From an uncultured Candidatus Saccharibacteria bacterium (GTDB lineage Bacteria > Patescibacteriota > Minisyncoccia > Phycocordibacterales > DATDWN01), in contig CAZPGQ010000002.1 in the NCBI GenBank assembly GCA_964586695.1, forward strand, positions 6,337-70,336: a stretch of DNA of 64,000 nt, in the 5' to 3' direction. Below the pieces are notes generated by a model that saw nothing but the letters and a program-made list of their open reading frames with translations, made no database searches and was not told where the DNA came from. The position numbers and the translations under genes are program-made. Every line of letters starts with the position of its first letter. The stretch's first letter is position 1. Of the stretch, positions 6,001 through 39,125 are shown piece after piece.

Positions 6001-9000
6001 CCTGTCCATGCACCACCAGCACCACCTGCGCCAGCAGATCCTCCTGCACCAGCTACACCAACTACACTACCGGTAGTATGGTAACTTTCTCTAACTGACA
6101 ACGTGCTGTTACCTGCAATTCCTCCAATATATAAAACTCCAGCTGCACCTCCAGTTCCGCCAGCAATACCAGCAAGTCCGTTCTGGGCCGCCACACCTGT
6201 GGCTCCTGCACCACCTGCACCACCAGTGCCAGACACAGCATTTGTAGAAGATGCAAATGCATTAACACCAAGATTACTTGCAACAACACCTCCAACATAT
6301 GCAGTACCACCAGCTCCACCTGCACCAGATGCACCCCCGGCACCAGATGTTCCCGCTGATCCCTTTGCACCACCGGATCCTCCAGTACCCCCAACTCCTC
6401 CAACTCCACCGACGACACTAACTAGTCCAGTCGTTGAATTTACATATCTAATCGCTCCATTATTTAATCCAACCAAGCCACCTGAATATGCTCCACCACC
6501 AGCACCACCAACAGACCCAGCTCCACCAGCACCACCTGTACCTGTAGTAGTAAGTGAAGCACTACCACCTGCTCCACCCGTAGTACCATTTTTACCCGCA
6601 GATCCTGTTGCCGTTACAACACCACTAGCGTAAACTTCTAAAGTTTCGCCTGAAATAATTCCTGATATACCATTTTGAGCAACGAGTCCTCCAGCGTATG
6701 CGATTGCTCCAGCACCACCAGCACCTCCAGTCGCAGTTGCACCAGATGCACCAGCAGCCACTGAACCCGCGGCAGAAGCACCACCCGCACTTCCCGCTGA
6801 ACCGTTACCTGGTGTACCACCAGTTGCCTGGACAACTCCTGTTGCATAACTTCCATTTTCAATAGTTCCTGAATTGTTTCCAACTAATCCACCTGCATAC
6901 GAAACACCACCAATTCCTCCAGCGGCACCGGCACCACCAATTCCTCCAATATTTGATCCTCCACCACCAGTTCCTGCATTACCCCCAGTACCAGATGTTC
7001 CTGCATTACCACCTGCACCACCTAGCGCAGTAACTTCTCCAGTAGTGAAAGAGGAACTCACTGTCCCGGCTTGTATCCATCCTACAAGTCCTCCAACATA
7101 AGAAACGCCTCCGGCTCCAGCTACTGCAGCTGCACCGCCTGCTCCACCAATTCCAGTTCCAACTCCAGTGACTGATCCATTTCCTCCATTTCCTGCATTT
7201 CCACTTGCACCTCCTGCTCCACCAGTACCAATAATTGTTGCCGTACTTGTTGCAGTTGCAATACTTCCTTGTTGTGAATATCCAACTACACCTCCCACAT
7301 ACACAGTACCGCCAATTGCAGCGGCATTACTAACAGCTGAACCACCTAAACCACCAGTGTTCGTCCCAGTTGTAGTGTTTCCACCGTTACCGCCAGCACC
7401 TCCTGCACCACCAGCACCTCCTGCACCAGTAACACTTCCCGCAACTCCAACATTTGTAATTGTTCCTGTGTTATATCCAACCAAACCACCGAGATATAAA
7501 ACACTACCCGCAGTACCAGCACCACCGTTAGTACCCGCAGTTGGTGATGCTCCATCCGATCCAGCTGAACCAGTACTACCTACAGTTCCCGCGGTACTTG
7601 TTGCACTAACAGATAAACCAGAAAGATATACATTTTGAATAAGGTTTGTTGAATATCCAAAAATTCCCACATAACTTGATGTCGTTGTGGCAATAAATAA
7701 ATTGCTTATGGTGAAATTATTTCCATCAAAAATTCCTGTAAATGTATTAACAGTTGAATTGCCCACTGGATCAAAACCGGCTCCAGAGTTCCAACCAGTT
7801 GTATTTGTGGCATCTATGTTGTTGTTTAATTTATAAGAACTTGATGTCGCAGTTTTCATTCCCTGTAGTCCATACACATCATAAATTATGAAAGGGTCTG
7901 TACTTATACCCAATCCGGTATATCGACGAAATGTACCTGCGCTTACAGAAAAACTTCCTGTCACGGTTAATGTATTTGTTTCAGGATTGGTCGCTGTAAA
8001 TGTCGCTGCAGATGTCTGAGAATAATTTCCAGACTGGCCACCAGAGTTTGTAATTGTAAGATCTTCACTTTGAACAATTGTCCCTGTATATCCACTGATA
8101 GTGATTGAGCCTGCAGTCGCAGAAGTATCTATGGTAATTACAGAAGATGCAGATCCAGAACTTGCATCAAAAAATACCGCAGTTGTTGCATCTGGAATAC
8201 CACCAAAACTTCCAGCCACACCGTTAGAAGATGCAGCCCATTTGTTTGAATCAGACCAATTTCCAGTACCTCCCACCCAGTAAGCATTTGGGTCAGTGAT
8301 GTAGTCTATCTCAATATTACCAATAATCTTTAAATCAAAAACTGCTGTCGGATTTATAAGCCCATTAAGAACTAGACTGTATCTTCCGTCACTACCGATT
8401 GTCGCAAAAGTTCCAACGTATGTACCATCAATTGTATAAACTTCTACCGTTACGGGAGAGCTGGAGCTAGCAGGTCGAGCAAACAATGTAATGTCACGTG
8501 TATTATCCAAAAGATGTTCAAATGTAACTCGCACATACTGCCCATCTAAAATACTCACATAATTTTGATCACGTGTTTTAACTAAATCATAAATATCCTC
8601 AATAACATTTTTAGCACTGTCCAATCTCATAGCATTTGAAATTAAAATAATTTCAAAAATCTGTGTAGACAAATGTGGAACTATCCATGCTACGTGATCT
8701 ATGTAACCGTTTCCATCTTCATCAGTTGCAACAAATTGCATTTCCTGAGCTCCGTTATTTTTCCACTGAATTTTAATTTTACTTTCATCACCCACTTTAA
8801 AAATTTCTGGTATAGCAGTTTGAACTGGAATGTTTATCATCGGTGTAATCAACTCCTGTTCCGGTGTTGCTGAAACTACTACTGTTTTTCCATTCTCTGA
8901 AATTTGCTCAACGATTGTTGGAATTTCTATTTGTGAAGATTGCGAACCTCCACCAGAAAGTGAATCATGGGTTTCAACTGAAGTTGTAGAATTCTGACTT

Positions 9001-9449
9001 ATAATATTTTCAGTAGAAGTTGAAACCTGTTCTTCGTTTAAAATTAAAACTGAAGTTGAGGTTGAAAATTGACCTTCATCTAAAACCGAATCAGAGTCAA
9101 GAATATTTTCATTATTTGAAATTTCATCCGTAGTTGTAGCAACAGAAATTTCTGTTGCTGTGGAATTTTGAATCTGCGTATCTATCTCAACTTGATTCTC
9201 GATTAGCGGATCTGCTGCCTGCTCAATATTTTCTTCAACAAGAATTGAAGGTTCAGTTATTTCTGGGATAGGCAATTCTGGAACTGCAGGCACTTCAGGA
9301 GCCACAACCTCTATTGGATCCACCTGGACCAATACTTCATTATCAGCATGGAGCTCCAATGGCAGCGCGACAAAGGCAAGTAGAAAAAATATCACTAAAG
9401 TATTTTTAGTGAAATATAATTTTAAATTTTTTATCCGTTCAAAAAACAT
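1..9449 (-). CDS. Giant secreted glycine-rich GLUG-repeat surface protein. 5'-partial (ORF runs off the left window edge), >3100 aa in window.
   Basis: Minus-strand ATG at 9449 encodes signal peptide MFFERIKNLKLYFTKNTLVIFFLLAFVALPLELHA. About 600 aa of non-repeat N-terminus follows, with GLUG-like stretches (GIFGYSTNLIQNVYLSGLSVSAT). Then about 7.6 kb of degenerate repeats of the form AGGLIG..ITNSYATGSVSA.GG separated by G/A/T/S linkers (e.g. ANGVAGGAGGTASIGGVGGAGGATGAGGAAYAGG read from revcomp of 100-200). No ORF ending at 9449 is listed in the track, so the frame stays open to the window edge. Confidence 0.8.
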   Translation of the reverse strand, partial: MFFERIKNLKLYFTKNTLVIFFLLAFVALPLELHADNEVLVQVDPIEVVAPEVPAVPELPIPEITEPSILVEENIEQAADPLIENQVEIDTQIQNSTATEISVATTTDEISNNENILDSDSVLDEGQFSTSTSVLILNEEQVSTSTENIISQNSTTSVETHDSLSGGGSQSSQIEIPTIVEQISENGKTVVVSATPEQELITPMINIPVQTAIPEIFKVGDESKIKIQWKNNGAQEMQFVATDEDGNGYIDHVAWIVPHLSTQIFEIILISNAMRLDSAKNVIEDIYDLVKTRDQNYVSILDGQYVRVTFEHLLDNTRDITLFARPASSSSPVTVEVYTIDGTYVGTFATIGSDGRYSLVLNGLINPTAVFDLKIIGNIEIDYITDPNAYWVGGTGNWSDSNKWAASSNGVAGSFGGIPDATTAVFFDASSGSASSVITIDTSATAGSITISGYTGTIVQSEDLTITNSGGQSGNYSQTSAATFTATNPETNTLTVTGSFSVSAGTFRRYTGLGISTDPFIIYDVYGLQGMKTATSSSYKLNNNIDATNTTGWNSGAGFDPVGNSTVNTFTGIFDGNNFTISNLFIATTTSSYVGIFGYSTNLIQNVYLSGLSVSATSTAGTVGSTGSAGSDGASPTAGTNGGAGTAGSVLYLGGLVGYNTGTITNVGVAGSVTGAGGAGGAGGAGGNGGNTTTGTNTGGLGGSAVSNAAAIGGTVYVGGVVGYSQQGSIATATSTATIIGTGGAGGASGNAGNGGNGSVTGVGTGIGGAGGAAAVAGAGGVSYVGGLVGWIQAGTVSSSFTTGEVTALGGAGGNAGTSGTGGNAGTGGGGSNIGGIGGAGAAGGIGGVSYAGGLVGNNSGTIENGSYATGVVQATGGTPGNGSAGSAGGASAAGSVAAGASGATATGGAGGAGAIAYAGGLVAQNGISGIISGETLEVYASGVVTATGSAGKNGTTGGAGGSASLTTTGTGGAGGAGSVGGAGGGAYSGGLVGLNNGAIRYVNSTTGLVSVVGGVGGVGGTGGSGGAKGSAGTSGAGGASGAGGAGGTAYVGGVVASNLGVNAFASSTNAVSGTGGAGGAGATGVAAQNGLAGIAGGTGGAAGVLYIGGIAGNSTLSVRESYHTTGSVVGVAGAGGSAGAGGAGGAWTGGTQGAAGAATVGGIIYAGGVVGHNTGTTISDSYSTSNVEGTSGAGGAGANGGNGYTFTTGVAGIAGSAGAAGGIAYAGGVVGYLNNGEIQNSYSTGIATSTGGVGGLGGNGGNGGAGTSNTGGAGSTGAAGGAGGAAFGGGVVGQIILGTVTSSYNTGNVFVTGGAGGSAGNGGTGGVGGTNFAGGIGAAAGAGGAGGVATAGGVAGQSAGVIQDTSYSTGNVTSLGGTAQVGGSGGTGGASVGTFVGAGAVGGTGGTGGAGAIAYASGVVGNNTNTIINSYASGTITATASAGANGGSAGLGGSNVSGGASSTGAAGATGGAGGAGAVAYSGGIAGLNTASITSVNFETGSVTSIGSNGGTGATGGAGGIGGTGALGAAGGTGGASGAGGIGYAGGLVAFNSAGVVNDSYADIVVTSTGGSSGIGGTGGAGGVGAAGGVGGAGVVGAAGYSGGAVGMNTGSIHETYSTGNAIATGGAGGANGGGGVGGDRATSAGGAGGAAGATATNLGGVGYAGGLIGFNSTNGSVQGSYATGNATATGGAGANGATGANGGTSTGAFTGGTGIAGGVGTVGGVGAAGGLIGFSVGAVASDVYANGNVSATGGAGGAGGNAGNGGNSGAGVVGVAGVAAGAGGAGGASYAGGVMGWNGVIAGTINIANNTGTVNSAGGAGGNGGAGGNGGAGGSSTGAIGGAGGVGGAGGAGGAGYGGGIAGSNTGVIRNTNYTITTITVSGGTPGVGGNGGNAGASGNISGSAGATGGAGGAGGAGGATYIGGLAGDNPGLINNSIVVGDITSSNVDGGAGGAGGAGGNGASGTGGHTGGVGGAGGAGGASGNLYLGGLVGQGNGNIANSSSEGGTITATSGGGGANGGSGGAGGSGGSGSGRNGVGGAGGAGGATGALFVGGALGGNSAVAYINNLFSTNNVVVNADTGGTGGSGVAGVNGAAGSSGGAGGAGGITQATASNAGGLIGSISGAGVVLKDSYATGNVTITGDTGGAGGIGGVGSNAISAVAGGAGGIGGAGGAGGFAYGGGLVGFTNTGVSIESSYSTGNVTVVAGNGGNAGAGGAGATGGASQVGGAGGAGGAGGLGGASYTGGLVGLVTTGNISHASSTGAVTGTSGNGGNSGAGGAGGAGGSSSAGTAGTVGTVGGAGGVNFTGGLVGDNTSHILNSYHIGGAVTATSGNGGVGGAGGAAGASGTITNGTAATGGAGAAGGVGGAVSVGGLVGRNGVTALSASITDSYATTSVTAVGGNGGAGGVGGVGGDGSAGTNHAGGVGGAAGAGGAGAITLAASVQAGGLAGQNVLGTITNSYAKTGTVTATGGTGGASALGGAGGTGTGTALNGIGGAGSNGGAGGAVYAGGLVGYSTGVIQDGSYSKTTLTLTGGTGANGANGISGSSGTGVAGSVPGTGGASGVVYAGGLAGYATADVISSYASYDAGAGTGNISVTGGTPGNGGNAGNGGSGKAGGSAGGAGAVATLGVGGASSGAFVGGLIGFSSGVITSSYATNLSISGSEQAGGNGGTGGNGGTGVGAFNGGVGAVGGAGGAGGIRAYGGLVGDYLSTLGSIQDTSYSNINISVTGGTGGNGGNGGAGGTSGASQSSGTAAVAGVGGNGGAGAATYGGGLVGRITGTTQVMRISNVYATGNVSVVGGTGGNGGTGGTGGDGSTGSSTHTGSAGGLGGVAGVGGEADAGGLIGLSNLTTGSIDYLSNYATGSVSATGGNAGTQGTSGAGGSSASGATGGAGGAAVGTPPAGGAAYAGGLIGIHRITTTPAGSSIANSYSTGVVSAQGGVGAVGSTGGAGATGGTIGGAGGAGGAGGIGGEADAGGLVALASVTTGFIHYLDNYSITSSVSATGGVSGVGGSAGSSASGGSGVGGATGASGASSAGGAAYAGGLVAQTTNTASNNLQITTNYSTRAVTATGGASGNGANGVAGGAGGTASIGGVGGAGGATGAGGAAYAGGLIGSNGTAAGAGGGIIENYSYATGAVSATGGA

Positions 9450-9903
9450 AGATTATTATTAATAATTTTAACAAACAGATTTTTTTATGTATATGAAAAA
9501 TGATTATATTTTTAGTCATATTCTTCTACTAAACTTTTTAATTTTATTAGTATTTTTTCACAGAAAAAATAGCTAGCTTTTTGCGGGAAAACAATTTAAA
9601 AATCAGCATTAACTATCCAATGAAATATTAGATTTGAAAATAATACTTGCATGAAACATCTACCCAGACGAAGCCATCACCTTTAAATTTATTATCGATA
9701 GAAATAGAAAATGTTTTTATGTATTTATATATACTATATTATTGGGCCGACACATTAATAAACCTTGATAATGATATATACGAAATTGACTATTTTATCT
9801 ATATTTATAGCTCCACTAGTTTAAAATTTATATTTTACTTGTAGATTTAATTTTTTGGTAAAAGTATGCCTAATTTAAATCTGTGTAACATTTTTGATTT
9901 TTG

Positions 9904-9974
9904 AGCCAAGAATGAGAATCGAACTCATGTTCCTGCTTTACGAAAGCAGTGTTCTACCACTGAACTACCCTGGC
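9904..9974 (-). tRNA. tRNA-Thr (anticodon CGU)
   Basis: Cloverleaf on minus strand: acceptor gccaggg/tcttggc (2 GU pairs), anticodon stem ctgct/agcag, loop ttCGTaa, T arm atgag-ttcgatt-ctcat. No encoded CCA. Confidence 0.75.
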
Positions 9975-10056
9975 TAATGAATACAATATAGTTCCAAAAT
10001 ATTGTATGTACCAAATTAAGTTATCCACAATCAAACTTAAAATTTGTTTAATTTTG

Positions 10057-10128
10057 AGCCGCTGGCGGGAATCGGACCCGCGCTCTCCGTCTTACCAAGA
10101 CGGTGCTTTACCACTAAGCCACAACGGC
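10057..10128 (-). tRNA. tRNA-Thr (anticodon GGU)
   Basis: Minus strand: acceptor gccgttg/cagcggc, anticodon stem ccgtc/gacgg, loop ttGGTaa, T arm gcggg-ttcgatt-cccgc. Confidence 0.75.
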
Positions 10129-10152
10129 ATTCGAACAATATAACACATAGTT

Positions 10153-10782
10153 TTATTTTTGGTCATACTCCTTTATCTTCCCCATTTCTATTTCTATCTT
10201 ATCCGCTTTCCTTAAATTTTTAATTTGTTTTTTTGTGAGTATTTGGTGGTGAGTTATTTTATCTAAATATTCTGGTATCTCAAAAAGATCGACTTCTGAT
10301 GTTCTCCAATTTATTTTATTAAAATGATTGAGATCAAAAGGATCAGAATATTCTCTCAAAGTTTTCAGACCATTATTGTTCAAAAAATATTCGTGAAAAT
10401 ACGACATTACCAACTCTCTTATGCTTTTATATACTGGCTCTCTGTACCTCAAAACTCCATGATTTGTTTTTGATATAGCTCCATAAAAACCCTCCTCATT
10501 CCAAATAGCAACGACATGGTCGTAGTCAAAAGGTTTTTTGGATGACCTCAAATCAAGTACTAGTGGTTTGAAACCATGATGTTCCAAAATTGCTGAAGCT
10601 AGTAACGCACCTTCCATGCAATGAGCTTTGTTCTCCAAAAGCACGCTTCTTGGAGACATACAGGTCTCACCTTTTTTTTCAAAATTAAAAGGTATTTTAT
10701 TCAAAAAATCTTGAATCTTTGCTGGTGTATTCAGTTTCTTAAATAATTTTTCTTCAGTTTTTGTATAACCAAAATTGTTCAT
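10153..10782 (-). CDS. Hypothetical protein with conserved Cys/His-containing core (CMSPRS...HCMEGALLASAILEHHGF...DYDH). Possible transglutaminase/papain-like fold, function unknown.
   Basis: 209-aa ORF with clean start. Motif recognition only. Confidence 0.5.
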   Translation of the reverse strand: MNNFGYTKTEEKLFKKLNTPAKIQDFLNKIPFNFEKKGETCMSPRSVLLENKAHCMEGALLASAILEHHGFKPLVLDLRSSKKPFDYDHVVAIWNEEGFYGAISKTNHGVLRYREPVYKSIRELVMSYFHEYFLNNNGLKTLREYSDPFDLNHFNKINWRTSEVDLFEIPEYLDKITHHQILTKKQIKNLRKADKIEIEMGKIKEYDQK

Positions 10783-10809
10783 ATATAGAACAATTTTAAC
10801 ATAAACAGA

Positions 10810-12258
10810 CTAATAATTTACTCCAAGCTCTTGAGATTTATAGGTGTCTTTTAGCCAATTTACTAGAGATAGTGTATCTTCATCTTTTGAGGATGAGCCG
10901 AGAATAACTACAGCAACTTTTCTGTCTTTACCATTAATTGGAACATTAAATATACTGGTTGCAACCTGCTTTAAATCTTCTGTTTCTCCGTGTTGGGTCA
11001 TAAGCACAGACTGATCTAGCAAAGTAGAATTATTCGTCCAAGAATAACTTTTATGTGAAGAACTTTCATCTATTTTATAACTTTTAACTGTTGTTACCTT
11101 TGATAAATATGAATGTTTCCTATAAAAATAACTCACTAATCTAAACATATCACTAGCAGTAGAGACATTCTCAGGATTCTTACTAATCACATCAGAGAAC
11201 TTTGTATCTGACATTTTTAGTGCTTTTGCTTTTATATTCATAAGACCAATAAACATACTCTTTCCAGCAGAATGTGCGATAGAGTCCCCTGCTACATCCT
11301 TACCGCCAATAAGAAGAGGCCTAAGCATTTGAGTTATTGTAAGCACGTCACCTTTCTCCATATCATAATTTAGACCAGCATGATCGCCAGAAATGTTTAC
11401 AGGAACTTTGCGGTCATCTCGATATATTTCGTCAGATATAACGGCAGTCATAATATTTGCCAATGAAGAAATTGGCATTTTCTCTTTAGAAGACTTTTCA
11501 GCAAATACAAAACCTGTATCTATATCAGCTACTACATAAGAACTGGCATCAACCTCTGGAAAGACACTTATACTACTAAAGTCTTTGTGGAATGACTCTA
11601 CAATAGCAACTGTATCCTGACCTTTTTCTGGTTCAATAATAAATACAGGAGTCCCAATTTTTACAAAATCAAAAACAATCTTCGAATTTTCATTTGAAAG
11701 CCTAATACAACCACCAGAATCTCCATCTCTAATGTTAACCCCGTTTGCATAATGTGGCATACCATGTATAAAAAAGTTTCCAAAAAACTGCATGCTGTAC
11801 GGCATATAAATATTACCTATTGAAACAGGATGACTAACTTCTTTGGTTAATACTTTATATACACCGATAGGAGTTTCGTATCTTGACCCTTCTTTACCTT
11901 TTGCCAAAATATTCAACTCTTGTTCAATTTTTCCGTCATTAATAAGCTTGATCTTCATTTCTGTTAAGTCAGCAAAAACAGCCTTACCTTCTGTAGGAAT
12001 ATCTATACCAGTTCCATCAATGCTAATAACCCTCTTTGATATAGAAGAGTTAATTGCATCCAATCTTTCTTGCTCAGCTAATTGCTGTTGTAACTTTTCA
12101 AACTCTACACTCTTTGCTTCTTCTGCCAATCTCTGTTTCTCATACTGAACATCAATATTGTGACTGCATATTGATAAACCAAATGATCCGAGACTTAAAA
12201 CAAAAAAAAGACTAGTGATAATGATTATGAAAGTCTTTCTTTTATTCCATATTTCCAT
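10810..12258 (-). CDS. Membrane-anchored L,D-transpeptidase (YkuD) domain protein with C-terminal PBP5/D-Ala-D-Ala carboxypeptidase-like region
   Basis: N-terminal TM, coiled-coil. YkuD catalytic signature FFIHGMPHY...DSGGCIRLS. C-terminal region carries the PBP5-like block PISSLANIMTAVI (resembles PASLTKIMTA but with N in place of K). Confidence 0.6.
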   Translation of the reverse strand: MEIWNKRKTFIIIITSLFFVLSLGSFGLSICSHNIDVQYEKQRLAEEAKSVEFEKLQQQLAEQERLDAINSSISKRVISIDGTGIDIPTEGKAVFADLTEMKIKLINDGKIEQELNILAKGKEGSRYETPIGVYKVLTKEVSHPVSIGNIYMPYSMQFFGNFFIHGMPHYANGVNIRDGDSGGCIRLSNENSKIVFDFVKIGTPVFIIEPEKGQDTVAIVESFHKDFSSISVFPEVDASSYVVADIDTGFVFAEKSSKEKMPISSLANIMTAVISDEIYRDDRKVPVNISGDHAGLNYDMEKGDVLTITQMLRPLLIGGKDVAGDSIAHSAGKSMFIGLMNIKAKALKMSDTKFSDVISKNPENVSTASDMFRLVSYFYRKHSYLSKVTTVKSYKIDESSSHKSYSWTNNSTLLDQSVLMTQHGETEDLKQVATSIFNVPINGKDRKVAVVILGSSSKDEDTLSLVNWLKDTYKSQELGVNY

Positions 12259-12320
12259 GTGTAAAAAATACTTTACTATGAAAAACCAGATTTGTCTAAT
12301 ATATTTTAGTATGGTAATTA

Positions 12321-12722
12321 TTAAAATGGAGACTGAGATTGGCTTAAATAGTTACAGATTGGTAAAAAAAGTGGTTGAGGTAATTTATCCCATTCGAACC
12401 AATCCCAAGATTCACATTTATTTGGTTCTTTGATTTCTGGCTCGCCACTATCATAGTCAGCAATAACAAATAGTGTGATGAAATGTTTACCTTCTTCCTT
12501 AAACATATCATTTGTGTAAATACTGTTCTTTAGATTTTTTATTTTCAAACCGGTCTCTTCCTCAACCTCACGCATCGCGCATTCTTCTGGTGTTTCCCAT
12601 AAATCTAATTTTCCACCAGGAAAACTCCATGTACCCGCGCCATGAGCCCCTTTTCTTTTACCAAGTAGAACCTTGTTACCTCTACGAATTATTACTCCAA
12701 CACCAATTCCAGGTTTTTCCAT
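12321..12722 (-). CDS. NUDIX hydrolase
   Basis: Nudix box GGKLDLWETPEECAMREVEEETGL. Confidence 0.8.
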   Translation of the reverse strand: MEKPGIGVGVIIRRGNKVLLGKRKGAHGAGTWSFPGGKLDLWETPEECAMREVEEETGLKIKNLKNSIYTNDMFKEEGKHFITLFVIADYDSGEPEIKEPNKCESWDWFEWDKLPQPLFLPICNYLSQSQSPF

Positions 12723-12727
12723 ATTGA

Positions 12728-13138
12728 TTATATTATTTTAATAAAATCTAATACTTTTGATTTTATTATATCCCTCAAGTTATTGTAAAATTCTTGACCA
12801 TCACCTACTGCACCCGACACATCCCATGTTTCCAGTTTGTTTGAATTCTTTAAATATTCAGGTAATTCGTCAAAAGAAATTAAGGACACTATTCTGTCTG
12901 AATTATAGACTGGATCAGGTGTAAGTTGATTTCTGACTTTTTTAGTAACATCTATACCCTCTTCAGTCATTGTATTTACTAATTTAGTATCAATTTCTGA
13001 AACCAACTGATTTTCATTTTGAACAGGAACATCTGTCCCAGCACTAAATGCAGTATGTTCTGAATTAAAATGTGAAAATAATGCTTCCGCCATCTGGCTC
13101 CTTCCAATATTTGATTTACACACAAACAGTATTTTCAT
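12728..13138 (-). CDS. Low-molecular-weight protein tyrosine phosphatase / ArsC-type arsenate reductase family protein
   Basis: P-loop ILFVCKSNIGRSQMAEA (C-X5-R-S) at the N-terminus. Confidence 0.7.
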   Translation of the reverse strand: MKILFVCKSNIGRSQMAEALFSHFNSEHTAFSAGTDVPVQNENQLVSEIDTKLVNTMTEEGIDVTKKVRNQLTPDPVYNSDRIVSLISFDELPEYLKNSNKLETWDVSGAVGDGQEFYNNLRDIIKSKVLDFIKII

Positions 13139-13147
13139 AATAAAATA

Positions 13148-13612
13148 CTATTTTAATGATGGAATTTTACCATTCATCATTATTTCCCATGAAGTAAATC
13201 CTTCTCCAAAAAGGCCACCAAATGTTCTAAACATGTCCGCAATATAAGTTACAGTAAATAGTATTATCAATATAAACATTATTTTCTTAATCCCTGAAAT
13301 TTTTGCTTTACTTCCTAGAAAAATTATCAACCCCATTAAACCCAAAGCTACCATATTTCCAATAAGATAATTTGGAAGTATGCTGGATACCAAAGAAAGT
13401 AGTCCAACTGGGGTAAATAAACCAAAAAATCCTGCAATGTGACCACCGGTAGACCCAACAAAACTGTCATTCAAATACTGATTATACAAAAGTATATAAA
13501 TCAAAGTTATTGAAAGCCACCATATTAACAATTCTTTACCGAAACTATCTTTAAACTTTACATTCATACTCTTTGCAAATACTTCTTCCTGGTTTAGATC
13601 ATAATTATTCAT
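13148..13612 (-). CDS. Polytopic membrane protein, function unknown
   Basis: 154 aa with about 4 hydrophobic helices. Confidence 0.5.
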   Translation of the reverse strand: MNNYDLNQEEVFAKSMNVKFKDSFGKELLIWWLSITLIYILLYNQYLNDSFVGSTGGHIAGFFGLFTPVGLLSLVSSILPNYLIGNMVALGLMGLIIFLGSKAKISGIKKIMFILIILFTVTYIADMFRTFGGLFGEGFTSWEIMMNGKIPSLK

Positions 13613-13733
13613 TTATAAATTATACCAAGTTAGAATTTAAAAGTCCTTATTTTAGGTGCTTTTATTTCAGCGTGACCTAATGGATGATGTTAGAACTAGT
13701 TTTGAAAGGATAAATGATGCAACAATCGTATTA

Positions 13734-14309
13734 CTACTGATTAGAAACTAATCTAAATGTTGAGAGAGCCTTTTTAAAGTTTTCTAATCTTTGGTCTGAA
13801 ATTACACAATAGTCATTTTTACCAGTCATTCCTGTATCTATAGAGTCACAACTCAACGAGAAGAAAACTGATTTACCATTTAACAAATTAGTGCTTGCAA
13901 CTACATTTCCACTCATTGAATATTGAACGACTATATTTTTACCATTTGCTAAAATATTACTACATCTAGTATCTACACTTTCAATACAAGTCAGCGAATT
14001 TTTAGAATCTTTTAACTGAATTGAAATAATTTTTTGACCAACATTATTTTGAAAATTATCTAATTTGTTTAACACCTCAACCCTTTCTTTGCTATATATA
14101 AATTCAAACCCATACTCACTATTTGTATATATTTCTGGTATACCATGCTTATCTATATCCTTCTGCATTCTGGCAATATCACTTTTTGTGGTTACTGGCC
14201 CACCCAAATAAGAGAGCAGGAAAGCAGCCATTAATACGATAATTATTAATGCACTTAAAACCAGAAAAATAATTTCGATTGCTTTTTTCATATACCAAAA
14301 TTCTACCAC
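13734..14309 (-). CDS. Membrane-anchored secreted protein with 4 Cys, function unknown. Likely start MKKAIEII at 14291.
   Basis: N-terminal TM anchor. Shares the Y-x-N-x-EYGFEF-x-Y motif with ORFs at 49076 and 51010. Confidence 0.5.
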   Translation of the reverse strand: MVEFWYMKKAIEIIFLVLSALIIIVLMAAFLLSYLGGPVTTKSDIARMQKDIDKHGIPEIYTNSEYGFEFIYSKERVEVLNKLDNFQNNVGQKIISIQLKDSKNSLTCIESVDTRCSNILANGKNIVVQYSMSGNVVASTNLLNGKSVFFSLSCDSIDTGMTGKNDYCVISDQRLENFKKALSTFRLVSNQ

Positions 14310-14364
14310 AGTTCTAATTCACTACACCCGTGTTTTGTGGCTAATTTATTTAGTGAAAAAGTTG

Positions 14365-14439
14365 CGCGGTCGACCGGACTTGAACCGGCAGCCTCTCCCG
14401 TGACAGGGGAGTGCTCTAACCAAATTGAGCTACGACCGC
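14365..14439 (-). tRNA. tRNA-Asp (anticodon GUC)
   Basis: Minus strand: acceptor gcggtcg/cgaccgc, anticodon stem ctccc/gggag, loop ctGTCac, T arm ccgg-ttcaagt-ccgg. Confidence 0.75.
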
Positions 14440-14530
14440 ATATATGCGAACAGATAAAACTGTAGCAGATTTTTAAGCTGAAATCAATTTATAAAAATAA
14501 GGATCAGTCCCCTATTTAAAGTGCACAAGA

Positions 14531-14557
14531 TTACGTCTTGTGTCGAGGGTGGGTTAC
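14531..14557 (-). repeat. Direct repeat of the last about 27 nt (T-arm 3' side + acceptor 3' strand + trailer) of the tRNA(CAU) gene at 14700-14772
   Basis: cgtcttgtgtcgagggtgggttac at 14533-14557 matches cgtttgtgtcgagggtgggttac at 14697-14720. The intervening about 140 bp is GC-rich with multiple hairpins (gcgac..gtcgc, cctggtc-tact-gaccagg, gaaagccg-taaca-cggctttc). Confidence 0.7.
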
Positions 14558-14699
14558 TTCCGCGACTATTTTTTCGCCGTCGCTCAAAAATGTCGTGTCC
14601 GCGACTCGCGACCTGGTCTACTGACCAGGTGCCCGCTCCGTCCATCGAACCCACACGAAAGCCGTAACACGGCTTTCTCCTCGCACAAAACTACGTTTG

Positions 14700-14772
14700 T
14701 GTCGAGGGTGGGTTACGATCCCACTGCCTTGGGCTTATGAGTCCCACGCTCTACCAATTGAGCTACCCCGAC
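14700..14772 (-). tRNA. tRNA with CAU anticodon (elongator Met or Ile2/lysidine type)
   Basis: Minus strand: G1-C72 acceptor gtcgggg/cctcgac, D arm gctc/gagc, loop ctCATaa (A31-G39 mismatch noted), T arm gtggg-atcgtaa-cccac. Confidence 0.65.
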
Positions 14773-14817
14773 AATCCATAAAATATAGCAGAAAATTGCA
14801 TAAAAACAAATATGTGC

Positions 14818-14846
14818 TTGCAAAGTGCTAAAAACAGTTGTAGAAT
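14818..14846 (+). promoter_or_regulatory. Sigma70-like promoter for the plus-strand tRNA (TTGCAA-17 nt-TAGAAT)
   Basis: ttgcaa at 14818-14823, 17-nt spacer, tagaat at 14841-14846, about 7 nt upstream of the tRNA 5' end. Confidence 0.5.
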
Positions 14847-14853
14847 GACCTGT

Positions 14854-14924
14854 AGCGGGATGGAGAAGCAGTATCTCGGTAGGCTCATAACCTGCAGACC
14901 CAGGTGCAAGTCCTGGTCCCGCAA
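14854..14924 (+). tRNA. tRNA-Met (anticodon CAU) with initiator-like features
   Basis: Acceptor agcggga/tcccgca with unpaired 1-72 (A-A). A11:U24 in D stem (gaga/tctc). Anticodon stem gtagg/cctgc, loop ctCATaa. T arm ccagg-tgcaagt-cctgg. Confidence 0.6.
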
Positions 14925-14925
14925 C

Positions 14926-14972
14926 AAGTATGAAAAAAGAACCCTTATGGGTTCTTTTTTCATACTTGTTGC
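14926..14972. terminator. Perfect 21-bp-arm palindrome (bidirectional terminator candidate)
   Basis: acaagtatgaaaaaagaaccc-ttat-gggttcttttttcatacttgt lies between the 3' end of the plus tRNA and the 3' end of minus gene 15115-16053. Confidence 0.6.
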
Positions 14973-15114
14973 GGACAGACATAGTGCCGAGCACTATGTC
15001 GTCAGGACTTGCAAGGCGGAGCGGGCACACACTCACCAGAGTGGGTCGAGAGCCGGGGAGGCGGAAATTTTGTTGCAACAAAATTATCCGTCGACGATGT
15101 CCTGGTCCAATTTT

Positions 15115-16053
15115 TTATATTATTTGAAATTCCTCAAACACATTCCTATAAAGGCCAATTACAATCTTTGCCTCTCTTTGATTTAAAATAAAACCTTCTC
15201 CATCATGACTTATTCTATTTCTTACTTTGTGTGCCTCCCAAGCATCATCTAGAGTTCTAAAATCACTTTTTTCTACAACCTTCAACTTGTCCCCTATTGT
15301 GTCGCCAGGCAAAGATAATTTATCCAAAAGATCACCTAACATTATATCTGCCTCAATAATAGCTATCTTCCAATCATTTTCGTTTAGTGAATCTGCGCTT
15401 GCCTCTATTCTTTGCCATTTTGGATTGTTAACTCTTTCTTCCTCTACGCTAACTGGATATAGCAACACTCTTTCATTTTCCAAAATTGGTTTTATTTTAA
15501 AATCTAGATAAAGAATATACAGGAAACACAATATACAAAATATTATTATTAATATCTTTATCAAACCGATCATTGAGAATAACCATATCAAGGTTTTCTC
15601 TAAAGCATTTGGTTCAGTATCTACATATGCAATATTGTTTTCATCTACCCAACCATCCACCCCAGAATCGTAGTCCACATACCAATATTTTTTACCACCT
15701 ATTTCGACTGGTCCCTGAAGTATCTTTCCCCTTGCACCCATTCTATGACTACCGATTTTTTTACCGCCAGGGCTGTCATAAACATCAGCCTTATTCATAT
15801 TTATAACACCTACGCCTATAGCATTCTGAAGTGAGGCTATAGGTCGCGTATGAGCCAACAAAATACTCTTTCCATCAATAAAACCCTTGAGTCCGGCAGA
15901 AAACCACCTATTTGAATTTATCTTAGAAGTAACCGAATTAAAGATAGCAGAAAAAATTATGAGAGCAATAATAAGAGTTGCTATTTCAGCAAACACTGTC
16001 GCTTTATCATTCTTAACTTCTGGTTTTGCTTCTGGTTTTTTTTCGTCTGCCAT
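15115..16053 (-). CDS. Two-TM membrane protein with periplasmic/extracellular SH3b-like domain and C-terminal HEPN-like (R-x4-H) cytoplasmic domain
   Basis: TM1 FAEIATLIIALIIFSAIF. SH3b-like MNKADVYDSPGGKKIGSHRMGARGKILQGPVEIGGKKYWYVDYDSGVDGWV. TM2 LIWLFSMIGLIKILIIIFCILCFLYILYL. C-terminal about 120 aa alpha-rich with AWEAHKVRNRISHDGEG. Confidence 0.55.
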   Translation of the reverse strand: MADEKKPEAKPEVKNDKATVFAEIATLIIALIIFSAIFNSVTSKINSNRWFSAGLKGFIDGKSILLAHTRPIASLQNAIGVGVINMNKADVYDSPGGKKIGSHRMGARGKILQGPVEIGGKKYWYVDYDSGVDGWVDENNIAYVDTEPNALEKTLIWLFSMIGLIKILIIIFCILCFLYILYLDFKIKPILENERVLLYPVSVEEERVNNPKWQRIEASADSLNENDWKIAIIEADIMLGDLLDKLSLPGDTIGDKLKVVEKSDFRTLDDAWEAHKVRNRISHDGEGFILNQREAKIVIGLYRNVFEEFQII

Positions 16054-16095
16054 ATGTAACTATTATACATCAGAAAAAAACTTAACTGTAGAACT

Positions 16096-17520
16096 TTATT
16101 CATTCAAAAACTTTTTACCAATTTCAAAAAGGATATCCTCGCAGTTATGTGGAGCCATAATTTGTAAACCTAGTGGTAATTTTACACCTAGTGATTCAAC
16201 TTCACCATTTGGGATAGAAATGGCTGGAATGCCTACAATATTTGCCGGTACTGTAAAAACATCTTCCAAATATAGTGATAATGGATCGTTAATTTTTTCT
16301 CCAATCTTGAATGCAGGACCAGGAGTTGTTGGAGTTATTATTGCATCAACTTCAGAAAAAGCTTTCTTAAAATCTTCAGAAATTTTCTGTCTTAAAATTA
16401 AAGCTTTATTGTAATAAGCATCATGATATCCAGCAGAAAGAACATATGTACCAATAAGAATTCTTCTTCTAGCTTCTGGACCAAAGCCTTGACCTCTAGT
16501 TTTTAAATAATCCTGCAAAAGATTGTCCCCATCAACATGGAGACCAAATTTTACTCCATCAAACCTAGAGAGATTGGATGAGACTTCTGCTGGCATAATA
16601 ATATAATATACAGCAAGTGAATACTCGATATTAGGAAGTTTGATATCTTTTATTTCATAGCCTAAATCTTTTAGTTTTTTAACCGCCTCTTCAAACTTAG
16701 ATTTTGATTCATCAGGAATTCCACCTTTTTCTAGAATATGATAAGGCACTCCAATAGTTAGACTATTTTCAATTTTTCTTTTCTCATATATATCATCACC
16801 AAAAGTTGTGCTATCAAAAGAATCTTTACCTTTTATTATGTTAAACAAAATCTCCGAATCAGTTACAGTCTTTGTAATAGGACCAATAACATCCAAAGAA
16901 GACCCCATGGCCATAAGCCCGTGTCTTGAAACAGAGCCGTATGTTGGTTTTAATCCTACAACTCCACAAAAAGATGATGGTTGCCTAACAGAGCCCCCAG
17001 TATCAGAACCAAGTGACGCCAAGGCGCCATTCATTGCCACAGCTGCTACTGAGCCACCGGAAGAACCCCCCGCAACACGAGAAGTATCTAGAGGATTTTT
17101 TGTTACACCAAAGGCTGAATTCTCTGTCGAACCACCCATAGCAAATTCATCCATATTTGCTCTTCCCAAAAACAAAGCTCCTGCTTCTTTTAACTTTTTA
17201 ATAACAGTTGCGTCATATGGAGACACAAAACCTTCTAAAATTTTTGATGCAGAGGTTGCTTTTTTACCATCAATTAAAATATTATCCTTTATTGCAAGCG
17301 GAACACCAAAAAGAGGTCCTATTTCCCCTTTTTCTATTTTTTCATCTAATTCCTGTGCCTGATCTATTACATCAGAATATACTTCTAGATAAGCATTGAT
17401 ATCAGAATTATTTTTTTTAATGTTTTCTAAATAAGCTTCTGCAAGCTCCTTTACAGTAAAGTCCTTTGACTTTAAATGCTTATTTAGATCTTTAATTGTT
17501 AACTTTGAAATATCAATCAT
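16096..17520 (-). CDS. gatA: Glutamyl-tRNA(Gln) amidotransferase subunit A
   Basis: Amidase signature GGSSGGSVAAVA...GSDTGGSVRQP. 474 aa. Confidence 0.9.
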   Translation of the reverse strand: MIDISKLTIKDLNKHLKSKDFTVKELAEAYLENIKKNNSDINAYLEVYSDVIDQAQELDEKIEKGEIGPLFGVPLAIKDNILIDGKKATSASKILEGFVSPYDATVIKKLKEAGALFLGRANMDEFAMGGSTENSAFGVTKNPLDTSRVAGGSSGGSVAAVAMNGALASLGSDTGGSVRQPSSFCGVVGLKPTYGSVSRHGLMAMGSSLDVIGPITKTVTDSEILFNIIKGKDSFDSTTFGDDIYEKRKIENSLTIGVPYHILEKGGIPDESKSKFEEAVKKLKDLGYEIKDIKLPNIEYSLAVYYIIMPAEVSSNLSRFDGVKFGLHVDGDNLLQDYLKTRGQGFGPEARRRILIGTYVLSAGYHDAYYNKALILRQKISEDFKKAFSEVDAIITPTTPGPAFKIGEKINDPLSLYLEDVFTVPANIVGIPAISIPNGEVESLGVKLPLGLQIMAPHNCEDILFEIGKKFLNE

Positions 17521-17795
17521 AAAATTTTCTTAACTTTAAGGTACCTGCCTTCTCTAGATGGTGCATTATTTAAAAGTTTTTCAGTATACTCATCTGAATT
17601 ATTAGTTATAACATCATCCCTCATGACATTTCTTAATTTTGAGACGTCAGCTTTTGCATCTCCAGTAGAATTCTGTATCTGTCCGACATAGCCCAAAATT
17701 GAGTCTATTTGTGATGTTAGACCCTCAGCCTCTTCGTCAGATACCTCTATACGGGCAAGATCAGCAAGTTTCTTTATTTCGTCTTTTGTAATCAT
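17517..17795 (-). CDS. gatC: Asp/Glu-tRNA amidotransferase subunit C
   Basis: 92 aa. IDSILGYVGQIQ motif. 4-nt overlap with gatA. Confidence 0.8.
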   Translation of the reverse strand: MITKDEIKKLADLARIEVSDEEAEGLTSQIDSILGYVGQIQNSTGDAKADVSKLRNVMRDDVITNNSDEYTEKLLNNAPSREGRYLKVKKIL

Positions 17796-17800
17796 AGTAT

Positions 17801-19831
<2,031 letters not shown>

Positions 19832-38647: not shown

Positions 38648-38737
38648 ATGCTCAACATTATCTCACTCAGAGAAATAAAAGTCTATGAAATATGAGAACT
38701 TATCCACAAAACATTCGGCATATTTAAAATTCCAATG

Positions 38738-38826
38738 CGGAGACGGACGGATTCGAACCGTCGGTGCCGTTTAAAGGGCACACCTCTTTAGCAAAGAGGC
38801 ACGTTAGACCACTCTGACACGTCTCC
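38738..38826 (-). tRNA. tRNA-Ser (anticodon GCU), class II
   Basis: Acceptor ggagacg/cgtctcc, anticodon stem cctct/agagg, loop ttGCTaa, long variable arm, T arm ttcgaat. Confidence 0.75.
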
Positions 38827-38891: not shown

Positions 38892-38978
38892 GGAGAGATG
38901 GATGAGTGGCTTAAATCAACGGTTTACTAAACCGTCATCCCTTAATTGGGATCGCGAGTTCGAATCTCGCTCTCTCCG
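38892..38978 (+). tRNA. Class II (Ser-type) tRNA whose anticodon reads ACU as drawn (unusual A34). Needs tRNAscan-SE verification.
   Basis: Acceptor ggagaga/tctctcc, D stem gat/atc, anticodon stem acggt/accgt, loop ttACTaa, variable stem atccc/gggat, T arm gcgag-ttcgaat-ctcgc. Confidence 0.6.
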
Positions 38979-39125
38979 CAAGTAAAAATTACTTGTAATT
39001 TTTATCGAAGGAGAGGAGGACTAGCTTTTTGTATTCAAAAAGCGTTAGTCGATTCGAAAAGGTTCTTTAGATATTTTTAGAGCTTGCGAATAAAAATATC
39101 AAAAACCTGCACTGAAACTGTAAGT

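Follow-up and report, generated by a model that had tools for sequence, protein, structure and literature searches.

The gene at positions 15115-16053 of the window (the whole stretch of 64,000 nucleotides that was analysed) raises the question of what a protein with an SH3-like and a HEPN-like domain on either side of a membrane does next to the genes for a tRNA amidotransferase and a cluster of tRNAs. To our knowledge, nearly all bacterial HEPN domains known so far belong to conflict systems, i.e., toxin-antitoxin modules, Abi systems, CRISPR accessory proteins, and R-M systems. In Parcubacteria/Paceibacteria, RNA metabolism and roughly half of the core genes are uncharacterised. Our search for literature on this protein family in CPR/Patescibacteria returned nothing.

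The interval corresponded exactly to one minus-strand reading frame in the ORF list. From the N- to the C-terminus, the encoded protein consists of an N-terminal tail, a first transmembrane (TM) helix, an SH3-like ectodomain, a second TM helix, and a helical C-terminal domain (hereafter C-domain) carrying the motif R278-N-x3-H283. Its features were as follows:

15115..16053, minus strand: membrane-anchored SH3 and HEPN-like protein; complete ORF with ATG start, 312 aa plus stop
16000..16053, minus strand: N-terminal cytoplasmic tail, residues 1-18 (MADEKKPEAKPEVKNDKA); MADEKKP start kept in two-TM forms, net charge about 0
15934..15999, minus strand: TM1 or uncleaved signal anchor, residues 19-40; hydropathy above 1.6, AF2 helix 16-47
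15598-15933, minus strand: whole ectodomain, residues 41-152
15619..15822, minus strand: extracytoplasmic SH3b-like beta domain, residues ~78-145; AF2, Foldseek, and Pfam matches of homologs
15508..15597, minus strand: TM2, residues 153-182; hydropathy, AF2, and positive-inside statistics
15427..15507, minus strand: juxtamembrane linker, residues 183-209; alignment, AF2, and family tether statistics
15118..15426, minus strand: cytoplasmic DUF4145/Swt1-like HEPN domain, residues 210-312; AF2, HEPN-clan Pfam, and Foldseek
15346..15354, minus strand: E234-A-D236 in helix 2, at the HEPN helix-2 acidic position; conserved in alignments
15205..15222, minus strand: R278-N279-R-I-S-H283, Rx4H motif at the C-terminal end of helix 3, invariant; predicted RNase active site

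Two segments (approximately residues 19-40 and 153-182) passed the Kyte-Doolittle threshold of 1.6 in a 19-residue window. In the full-length AF2 model (mean pLDDT 85), the helix of TM2 extended into the cytoplasm as far as residue 198. Among 321 family members, the 15 residues flanking the last TM contained on average 3.09 K+R after it vs. 1.16 before it, and the count was higher after the last TM in 85% of the proteins. This excess favours a C-domain in the cytoplasm and a middle domain outside it. The hydrophobic segments and the positive-inside statistics thus supported the originally predicted in-TM-out-TM-in arrangement, i.e., a bitopic-hairpin protein of the inner membrane. The N-terminus had been described as Lys-rich, but the tail is not net positive, with 5 K vs. 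5 D/E in residues 1-20. In the linker that follows TM2, Y199-P200 was nearly invariant, and the length of the tether was constant across the family, with a median of 91 residues from the TM end to the putative catalytic R (IQR 88-95).

The ectodomain agreed with the SH3b-like, extracytoplasmic domain that had been proposed from the sequence. The full-length AF2 model predicted beta strands over residues 82-144 (block pLDDT 93-97), and Foldseek matched SH3 domains in the PDB at probabilities up to 1.00, including the bacterial wall-binding SH3b modules 4krt, 4q2w, and 5jqc. Homologs matched the Pfam families SH3_3, GW, SlpA, and Tudor_5, with best E-values in multi-repeat homologs of 5.3e-9 for SH3_3 and 1e-8 for GW. 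Among the SH3b Pfam families, the window protein itself matched SlpA alone (E = 0.1; 13.2 bits vs. a cutoff of 23). As modelled, the ectodomain has an SH3-like beta-barrel fold and lies on the extracytoplasmic side. The number of SH3 modules ranged from 0 to ~6 among relatives, and most species carried a short form without SH3. The module is therefore accessory, and signalling from SH3 to an RNase across the membrane cannot be the core mechanism of the family.

What the C-domain is was less readily answered by similarity searches. Single-sequence scans of the window protein against Pfam, NCBIfam, and PADLOC gave nothing significant; in Pfam there was no HEPN match at E ≤ 10 and no match to DUF4145. 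Searching with 51 diverse C-domains of the family gave matches to HEPN_Swt1 (27), HEPN_RiboL-PSP (14), DUF4145 (4), Hypoth_Ymh (4), and, more rarely, pEK499_p136 (3), HEPN_Cthe2314 (2), and HEPN_AbiV (1). In all, C-domains matched eight different Pfam families of the HEPN clan, each below threshold. The best match to DUF4145 (PF13643) aligned C-domain residues 20-97 with profile positions 8-87 of 88, and the best family member scored 21.3 bits (E = 2.8e-4), 1.8 below the gathering cutoff of 23.1. We therefore call the domain DUF4145-like and do not file it as a member of that family.

The AF2 model of the C-domain (pLDDT 94.5, pTM 0.86) contained, in the domain's own numbering, the helices H1 (6-15), H2 (20-40), H3 (63-82), and H4 (87-103). 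An insert between H2 and H3 (41-62) held a short helix (48-54), and R73, N74, and H78 were located on H3. The helical domain had originally been described as ending at the motif; in the model a further helix, residues 292-308 of the protein, comes after it. The HEPN fold has been defined by an Rx4H motif at the end of helix 3, acidic residues in helix 2, and an insert between helices 2 and 3 (PMC3710099). The motif, the acidic residues, and the insert of the modelled C-domain all occupied these defining positions, and the predicted helix arrangement would conform to that fold.

In Foldseek searches of the PDB, HEPN proteins (1wwp, 7ae6, 1wty, 2hsb, and 5yep) made up five of the six top-ranked matches. 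All E-values were ≥ 0.3, with many cytochrome b562-type bundles among the matches; small helical bundles readily draw spurious structural matches. MtlR was also present among the structural matches. A profile search with the C-domain against all PDB sequences gave chance matches only, e.g., MukF and GDH. Across all matches, similarity to HEPN by sequence or structure reached neither a curated nor a conventional significance threshold.

An R-x4-H spacing by itself is weak evidence: it occurred by chance in 14.5% of shuffles of the window protein, and R[NDH]x3H in 2.2%. What takes the motif beyond chance is its conservation among homologs. R, N, and H were invariant in an alignment of 37 sequences and in an alignment of 51 diverse C-domains, and R[ND]x3H was present in 263 of the 265 homologs retrieved, the two others being a truncated fragment and an SH3-only match. 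The R and H singled out in the original prediction were thus borne out as conserved, and R278-N279-x3-H283 has the form by which HEPN active sites are recognised, Rx4-6H with a polar N, D, or H directly after R. E234 and D236 were invariant in the 37-sequence alignment and present in ≥ 90% of the 51-sequence alignment. In HEPN proteins an acidic residue of helix 2, often within Ex3[KR], is close in space to Rx4-6H (PMC3710099); the Ex3[KR] form is absent from the window protein. HEPN families that have lost catalysis typically lost R and/or H (PMC3710099). Since the R, the polar N, the H, and the helix-2 acidic residues were essentially invariant across deep divergence, we read them as an active-site signature.

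These data bear on whether the C-domain could be an unrelated helical bundle specific to this family, with a coincidental R-x4-H and a role in, e.g., signalling or scaffolding. The sub-threshold status of every HEPN match, the chance matches of the PDB profile search, the Foldseek E-values with their b562-type bundles, and the frequency of R-x4-H in shuffles would all fit such a protein. However, weak signals from eight Pfam families arose independently and converged on a single clan (CL0291), the full-length DUF4145 alignment fell less than 2 bits short of its cutoff, HEPN structures dominated the top ranks, and motif, acidic residue, and insert lay exactly where the HEPN fold has them. We consider an unrelated bundle very unlikely. 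The profile searches, proposed at the outset as a check for assignment to an unrelated family, did not refute the HEPN reading, and together the results support a divergent DUF4145/Swt1-like HEPN domain. The combination had been described as not a standard annotated family. The protein indeed has no Pfam or NCBIfam family, but fusions of TM and SH3 with DUF4145-like HEPN domains, from Firmicutes, had already been listed by Anantharaman et al. in 2013 (Table 1 of PMC3710099).

Homolog searches gave 1551 matches, and 2392 clusters at 50% identity. At least 576 species-representative genomes contained the C-domain, and virtually all of them bear Patescibacteria-type names. Its divergence was correlated with that of GatA (Mantel r = 0.47, reached in none of 2000 permutations), and pairwise identity averaged 0.55 among C-domains and 0.60 among GatA proteins. 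The gene thus co-diverges with GatA and is about equally conserved; it belongs to the vertically inherited core genes of Parcubacteria/Paceibacteria (Minisyncoccia). The analysis supplies a name and a domain model for more than 1500 'hypothetical proteins'.

The genomic surroundings pointed in the same direction. The neighbours were housekeeping genes (pilins, ligA, gatCA, tRNAs, peptidoglycan enzymes, NUDIX, and LMW-PTP), and the features closest to the gene were:

17801..19828, minus strand: ligA, NAD-dependent DNA ligase; member of the conserved block
17517..17795, minus strand: gatC, overlapping gatA; member of the conserved block
16096..17520, minus strand: gatA, amidase subunit of Glu/Asp-tRNA amidotransferase; precedes the HEPN-like gene by 42 nt on its strand, Amidase (Pfam) matched in homologous loci
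14919..14974, no strand assigned: perfect hairpin of 26 bp, 4-nt loop, flanked on either side by T/A runs; likely bidirectional terminator
14854..14925, plus strand: tRNA with CAT anticodon, first of the cluster; 190 nt past the stop and convergent with the gene
14699..14772, minus strand: second tRNA with CAT anticodon; same strand as the HEPN-like gene
14364..14439, minus strand: tRNA-Asp (GTC), third of the cluster; same strand as the HEPN-like gene

In 78 of 80 species loci, gatA was located directly upstream on the same strand; the gap had a median of 27 nt and stayed below 200 nt in 77 loci, and the linkage included the short forms without SH3. Of 65 loci, 47 had a CAT tRNA no more than 300 nt downstream (38 on the same strand), and the tRNA order 'Met- Met+ Asp+' was found in 8 other species. 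In most species, the HEPN-like gene (X) lies between gatC-gatA and a tRNA(CAT)-tRNA(CAT)-tRNA-Asp cluster, within the conserved block ligA-gatC-gatA-X-tRNA(CAT)-tRNA(CAT)-tRNA-Asp. A scan of the spacer between gatA and X revealed no terminator-like sites, a strong hairpin follows X, and the gene is probably co-transcribed with gatCA. The hairpin likely ends the transcripts of both the HEPN-like gene and the convergent tRNA(CAT). A TATAAT located 10 nt 5' of the ATG could allow independent transcription of the window gene. Conserved synteny may in part reflect low rearrangement rates, without functional coupling. No gatB was found in the window with an approximate B. subtilis-like GatB sequence as probe, which is a weak test. 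Elsewhere in the window, an ORF desert at 1-9900 was considered as rRNA or recoding and rejected, as it is one giant minus-strand ORF leaving the window.

The gene had been described as lying beside a region with att-like tRNA repeats. The repeat itself was confirmed: 20 nt of the tRNA-Met 3' end recur exactly (14538-14557 and 14697-14716). However, a mere 159 nt separates the two copies, the segment between them is structured RNA-like and free of genes, and synteny of the tRNA cluster extends across species, so that the repeat was ruled out as the mark of an integrated element. The adjacency of the HEPN-like gene to tRNAs is ancestral synteny and not an integration site.

This context weighs on the role that had been suggested first, a single-protein abortive-infection or envelope-stress toxin in which the SH3b domain detects wall damage or an attaching phage and thereby activates the HEPN RNase, stopping translation. 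Most bacterial HEPN and DUF4145 proteins belong to conflict systems (PMC3710099; RAZR), a sensor-TM-HEPN logic has been proposed for other membrane HEPN proteins (PMC3710099), and SH3 repeats varying from 0 to ~6 are of a kind often seen in surface-exposed, fast-evolving parts. Toxin systems of this kind, such as MNT-HEPN, AbiD/F, AbiV, and RAZR-like ones, are sporadic and horizontally mobile, lie in defence islands, prophages, or plasmids, and come with a cognate antitoxin, an MNT, or a partner that senses the trigger, whereas this gene occupies one fixed chromosomal slot between gatCA and the tRNAs across at least 576 species (78 of the 80 loci), co-diverges with GatA at about GatA's level of conservation, and in most members lacks the ectodomain altogether. 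A PADLOC scan of the window protein gave no match, tblastn of the C-domain against phages gave none, and PHROGs showed no recurrent family match; searching plasmids with the most DUF4145-like member (E ≤ 10) returned one meaningless match. The proposed neighbourhood survey for MNT antitoxins or phage genes was carried out, and no MNT, antitoxin, or defence-island neighbours were seen in the loci inspected. An effector in a mobile, att-flanked setting is therefore not supported for this core gene, and we regard a toxin role as highly improbable.

The reading that accounts best for these data is a predicted housekeeping, membrane-tethered HEPN endoribonuclease, which we favour with a little better than even confidence. 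The invariant functional unit would be the cytoplasm-facing HEPN-like domain, which the last TM helix keeps at a distance of about 30 residues from the membrane. Judging from characterised HEPN enzymes, this domain would most likely be a metal-independent endoribonuclease; RAZR (PMC13017515) sets a precedent for a DUF4145-type HEPN domain that is a genuine ssRNA endonuclease, dependent on R and H and regulated through oligomerisation. Two membrane-tethered copies may pair their R278-N279-x3-H283 motifs, with E234 and D236 assisting, into a composite active site that would cleave single-stranded RNA at the inner membrane face. Because the gene is a vertically inherited core gene, sits in the conserved gatCA-tRNA block, and is probably co-transcribed with gatCA, it most likely serves to process or turn over RNA as a housekeeping function, with tRNA-containing or translation-related transcripts as possible targets, rather than to defend against phages. 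In the lineage of the window genome, one SH3b-type wall-binding module was inserted into the extracytoplasmic loop, where it probably serves to place the protein at the wall or to influence how it clusters. An active RNase that is made constitutively and has no inhibitor would need some other form of control.

The lack of an antitoxin despite apparently constitutive presence would fit a domain that does not cut at all. The R/N/H/E surface could instead bind a nucleotide, RNA, or protein partner, for instance anchoring GatCA, tRNA, or some ribosome-associated factor at the membrane, like the HEPN relatives MtlR, NTase-associated HEPNs, and Swt1, which act by binding. Several HEPN families are non-catalytic binders (PMC3710099), MtlR was among the structural matches, and the tight and ancient linkage to gatCA and tRNA genes would suit a binding partner. 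However, the residues in question are essentially invariant, and families that abandon catalysis typically lose the R or H (PMC3710099). A purely binding role is in our judgement unlikely.

A bolder version of the housekeeping endoribonuclease is an Ire1-like logic within the core genome of a CPR class, in which an essential HEPN RNase tethered to the membrane works in functional coupling with the GatCA/tRNA machinery; we consider it quite unlikely. The substrate of such an enzyme might be the gatC-gatA-X-tRNA(CAT) co-transcript, which it would process, or specific tRNAs, which it would cleave, and so tune translation at the membrane, and SH3-bearing lineages would respond to cell-wall or host-contact cues. 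If true, this would be the first housekeeping, non-conflict bacterial HEPN RNase to be described and a lineage-defining enzyme of RNA metabolism in Paceibacteria.

For the housekeeping endoribonuclease in general, the significance lies in a HEPN-like domain with an intact catalytic signature in a vertically inherited gene of hundreds of Parcubacteria/Paceibacteria species. If it is an active RNase, it would represent membrane-localised RNA processing or decay specific to these ultra-small, largely uncultured bacteria, and it would be a testable candidate, requiring a 110-aa soluble domain and two point mutants.

Among known systems, the closest relatives by sequence are the DUF4145-like HEPN domains (PF13643), which gave the best full-length profile alignment of the family and likewise carry R-N-x3-H at the end of helix 3. 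The Firmicutes TM-SH3-DUF4145 fusions, compared here by description only, have the same overall combination of TM, SH3, and HEPN. DUF4145 HEPNs occur in R-M and defence operons, whereas the present family was found only in Patescibacteria-type genomes, in a core gatCA-tRNA slot and with SH3 optional. The ectodomain resembles SH3b, GW, and SlpA cell-wall-binding modules in fold, extracytoplasmic location, and weak matches to SH3_3, GW, and SlpA; those modules are attached to a hydrolase or adhesin, whereas here the module occupies the loop between the two TM helices.

The idea of membrane-associated, stimulus-dependent HEPN RNases was published in 2013 (PMC3710099). The groups described there, i.e., WP-signature TM proteins with DUF4145, Salmonella-type proteins with a helical domain, TM, and Abi2/Swt1 HEPN, and HEPN-2TM-Zn-ribbon proteins, share with the present one a cytoplasmic HEPN domain on an inner-membrane anchor, and were proposed to cleave RNA at the inner membrane face, possibly in response to external stimuli (PMC3710099). 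Unlike them, this protein has neither a WP signature nor a Zn ribbon, carries its SH3 in the loop of a TM hairpin, has a different phyletic range, and lies in a housekeeping operon. RAZR combines a zinc finger with a DUF4145 HEPN whose similarity to canonical HEPN is only distant; R and H are essential to this ssRNA endonuclease, which cuts mRNA, tRNA, and rRNA and is governed by oligomerisation (PMC13017515). The two have 7AE6 as a common structural neighbour, but RAZR is soluble, phage-triggered, sporadic, and acts in abortive infection, whereas the present protein is membrane-anchored and core.

The KEN domains of Ire1 and RNase L, and C6orf70/ERMARD, all eukaryotic membrane-tethered HEPN RNases, share the logic of an ectodomain or lumenal domain linked through a TM to a cytoplasmic HEPN RNase, and act upon dimerisation or oligomerisation at the membrane (PMC3710099). 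The comparison is an analogy only, since the present protein lacks a kinase domain and, apart from membership of the superfamily, no relationship in sequence is detectable. RNase Y and RNase E are membrane-localised housekeeping endoribonucleases with HD/KH and S1/DNase I-like catalytic folds, respectively. Those folds are unrelated to the HEPN domain described here and imply no homology; what the present protein would share with RNase Y and RNase E is the proposed niche alone, that of a constitutive, membrane-tethered endoribonuclease encoded in the core genome.

Analysis of the protein designated X showed an intact reading frame with a conserved motif near its C-terminus:

15115-16053, minus strand: X, intact ORF with an ATG start, 312 aa
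15205-15222, minus strand: R278-N-R-I-S-H283 motif of X

Hydropathy indicated two clear hydrophobic segments (n=2; residues ~19-40 and ~153-182). The full-length AlphaFold2 model, built on 37 homologs, was confident (mean pLDDT 85). Its N-terminal helix corresponds to TM1 and is followed by a beta domain at residues 82-144 (block pLDDT 93-97) and a helix of 49 residues that includes TM2; a short linker modelled with low confidence then leads to a C-terminal domain of five helices (C-domain). The sequence strings quoted in the original prediction were found in X, with two small corrections: the N-terminal tail, described as Lys-rich, was charge-neutral and not Lys-rich in net terms, and the helical domain, said to end at its motif, has one more helix after R-x4-H in the model. 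The proposed cytoplasmic location of the C-domain was borne out by positive-inside statistics on 321 family proteins, 85% of which obeyed the rule, with a K+R count of 3.09 on the C-domain side of the last TM vs. 1.16 before it. The distance from the end of the last TM to the motif arginine had a median of 91 residues (IQR 88-95), and the constant portion of the family comprised the last TM, a fixed-length linker, and the C-domain.

As a single sequence, the C-domain of X matched nothing in Pfam, and a family profile of the domain found no relative among PDB sequences. When 51 diverse C-domains were each scanned separately, the recurrent Pfam matches were almost all to HEPN-clan families. These were HEPN_Swt1 (27/51), RiboL-PSP-HEPN (14/51), DUF4145 and Hypoth_Ymh (4/51 each), pEK499_p136 (3/51), Cthe_2314 (2/51), and AbiV (1/51); a further model matched was CTD11 of ABC-3C systems (13/51). 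The best alignment paired C-domain residues 20-97 with positions 8-87 of the 88 in the DUF4145 model, and the Swt1 matches likewise spanned the domain. Because the best DUF4145 score among the C-domains (21.3 bits, E = 2.8e-4; cutoff 23.1) lay below the gathering score, the domain is not filed as a DUF4145 member. The HEPN fold consists of a pair of alpha-hairpins, with an insert separating helix 2 from helix 3; its hallmarks are Rx4-6H at the end of helix 3, a polar residue after the R, and, in helix 2, an acidic residue (PMC3710099). All of these fold features were present in the AF2 model of the C-domain alone, which was very confident (pLDDT 94.5, pTM 0.86; helices 6-15, 20-40, 48-54, 63-82, and 87-103): helix 63-82 carried R73/N74/H78 (R278/N279/H283 of the full protein) at its end, E29-A-D31 (E234-A-D236) lay within helix 20-40, and an insert that includes a short helix separated the two. 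In a Foldseek search of the PDB, HEPN proteins ranked top (1wwp, 7ae6, 1wty, 2hsb, 5yep) and MtlR and 2q00 lower, with E-values of at least 0.3 and TM-scores of ~0.5. Taken together, the C-domain is very probably a divergent DUF4145/Swt1-like HEPN domain.

Since R-x4-H arose in 14.5% of shuffles of X (R[NDH]x3H in 2.2%), this spacing by itself means little, and the evidence is its conservation and structural position. R, N, and H were invariant in family alignments and kept in 263/265 retrieved family proteins; with the HEPN-clan matches and the HEPN-like position in the model, this upheld the predicted HEPN-like domain.

In Pfam, the single SH3 copy of X grazed only SlpA (E = 0.1), and multi-repeat relatives matched SH3_3, GW, SlpA, SH3_16, and Tudor_5. 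The modelled ectodomain retrieved SH3 folds in a structure search (probability up to 1.00), with SH3b wall-binding matches to 4krt (phiSM101 endolysin), 4q2w (pneumococcal LytB), and 5jqc (Listeria autolysin). These matches supported both the SH3 fold and its location outside the membrane, as originally proposed.

Relatives of X numbered 1551 in a 90%-clustered database and 2392 clusters at 50% identity; where names were given, they were "hypothetical", "SH3-like", or "GW dipeptide domain-containing" proteins of Parcubacteria, Paceibacterota, and Minisyncoccia (taxonomy checked). When one genome per species was scanned, the C-domain turned up in at least 576 species, essentially all with Patescibacteria-type names. 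A 3.4-kb contig labelled Nitrospira (locus L009), probably mis-binned, also carries gatA-X. Differences in architecture were confined to the region outside the membrane. Proteins had as many as six stretches matching the query, which suggests up to about six SH3-like repeats; most species had zero, and SH3-less short forms (190-240 aa) consisted of the TM anchor and C-domain only. The SH3 domain appears to be an accessory insertion, which appears to be a new observation.

The minus strand of the window carries, in order, type IV pilin genes, ligA (DNA ligase), gatC and gatA (Glu/Asp-tRNA amidotransferase), a 42-nt spacer, X, and a 26-bp hairpin, after which come a tRNA(CAT) convergent with X, another tRNA(CAT), and tRNA-Asp. 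Farther downstream are genes for membrane proteins, LMW-PTP, NUDIX, a peptidoglycan transpeptidase/carboxypeptidase, and two tRNA-Thr. The order ligA-gatC-gatA-X was repeated on three homolog contigs (43-63% identity), and a short SH3-less homolog likewise came after the 3' end of a gatA. Among the best 80 loci of the one-genome-per-species scan, a same-strand gatA lay upstream of X in 78, and in 77 it was less than 200 nt away (median gap 27 nt). A CAT-anticodon tRNA followed within 300 nt downstream in 47 of the 65 loci with enough downstream sequence (same strand in 38), most commonly as tRNA(CAT)-tRNA(CAT)-tRNA-Asp; the "Met- Met+ Asp+" arrangement of the window recurred in eight other species. 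The C-domain and the neighbouring GatA showed correlated pairwise divergence (Mantel r = 0.47, 0/2000 permutations), and the C-domain is about as conserved as GatA, an essential enzyme (mean identity 0.55 vs. 0.60). A PADLOC defence-system scan of X gave no match, tblastn against phages no match to the C-domain, and PHROG no recurrent match; MNT/antitoxin neighbours were absent from the loci inspected. The tRNA cluster, initially taken as a hint of mobility, therefore reflects ancestral synteny, its order being conserved across species, and X behaves as a core housekeeping gene.

The block ligA-gatC-gatA-X-tRNA(CAT)-tRNA(CAT)-tRNA-Asp(GTC) is deeply conserved across Paceibacteria-type genomes (window 9903-19828; homolog loci L001, L003, L005, L008-L087); tRNA-Thr(GGT) and tRNA-Thr(CGT) often follow tRNA-Asp, and in some loci, as in the window, the first of the two CAT tRNAs has the opposite orientation. 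Exceptions to gatA linkage were L054 (CAZHOB010000012.1; a 235-aa member in an apparently higher-GC context, no gatA within 3.6 kb) and L026 (gatA ~2 kb upstream), besides L065, where upstream sequence is cut off. Other features of the window were:

1 to ~9450, minus strand: one giant ORF, 3150 codons or more, running past the window start, GC ~50% vs. 37% in the rest of the window
10810-12258, minus strand: 482-aa single ORF with YkuD L,D-transpeptidase and Peptidase_S11 D-Ala-D-Ala carboxypeptidase domains
14530-14700, minus strand: 171-nt GC-rich segment between tRNA(CAT) and tRNA-Asp
14919-14974: perfect inverted repeat (26 bp, 4-nt loop) with A/T runs on its flanks, between the convergent tRNA(CAT) and the stop codon of X
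16054-16095: gatA-X spacer, no Shine-Dalgarno-like sequence, TATAAT 10 nt upstream of the X ATG
38737-38826, minus strand, and 38892-38979, plus strand: divergent tRNA-Ser pair (GCT and ACT; ARAGORN)

The giant ORF, which the ORF tool did not list because it runs off the window start, probably encodes a giant surface protein of the kind typical of CPR genomes. YkuD and Peptidase_S11 are both peptidoglycan-remodelling activities, and their fusion in one protein is uncommon. The 171-nt segment folds at -74.5 kcal/mol (z = -5.6; 0/200 shuffles as stable), contains a GGUUCGA T-loop-like motif, and has a closing stem whose 3' strand (14538-14557) is an exact 20-nt copy of the adjacent tRNA 3' end (14697-14716). 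It had no Rfam match and may be a structured RNA that derives from a tRNA or resembles one; the reading of the segment and its repeat as a mobile-element att site was rejected. The hairpin looks like a bidirectional intrinsic terminator; it was missed by a simple terminator scan, probably since that scan counts at most 20 stem pairs. Judged from sequence, the TATAAT could be an internal promoter giving a near-leaderless mRNA, besides gatA read-through. The ACT anticodon call is unusual, and Rfam confirmed both tRNA-Ser genes as tRNAs.

The best-supported reading of these analyses is that X is a membrane-tethered, cytoplasm-facing HEPN endoribonuclease; like every activity ascribed to the family here, this one is predicted. 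HEPN enzymes are metal-independent and leave 2',3'-cyclic phosphate ends; their R and H are essential, and dimers form composite active sites (PMC3710099). For a DUF4145-type HEPN, direct evidence of such cleavage comes from RAZR, which cuts ssRNA, tRNA, rRNA, and mRNA in an R/H-dependent manner controlled by oligomerisation (PMC13017515). Because of these precedents and the invariant R, N, H, and acidic residues, catalysis is the default expectation for the C-domain. The tether, at a fixed distance, would restrict the substrates of X, and the optional SH3b repeats would hold it in place or cluster it with respect to the wall. Lineages with SH3 may use X as a sensor, but sensing via SH3 cannot be the core mechanism of the family. 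That the gene has long been tightly linked to gatCA and tRNA genes suggests that X may act in translation-related RNA metabolism.

Neither Pfam nor NCBIfam has a model for the X family, and no literature on it was found; the family appears new, as do its status as a class-wide core gene and its near-obligatory slot between gatCA and the tRNA cluster. The architecture and the concept are already known, since both are in Anantharaman et al. 2013 (PMC3710099): Table 1 has an entry for DUF4145 domains "fused to ... TM and SH3 (Firmicutes)", and a section of its own, drawing an analogy to Ire1 and C6orf70, treats HEPN domains associated with membranes as RNases that depend on a stimulus. By their description in the table, these Firmicutes TM-SH3-DUF4145 proteins have an architecture like that of X.
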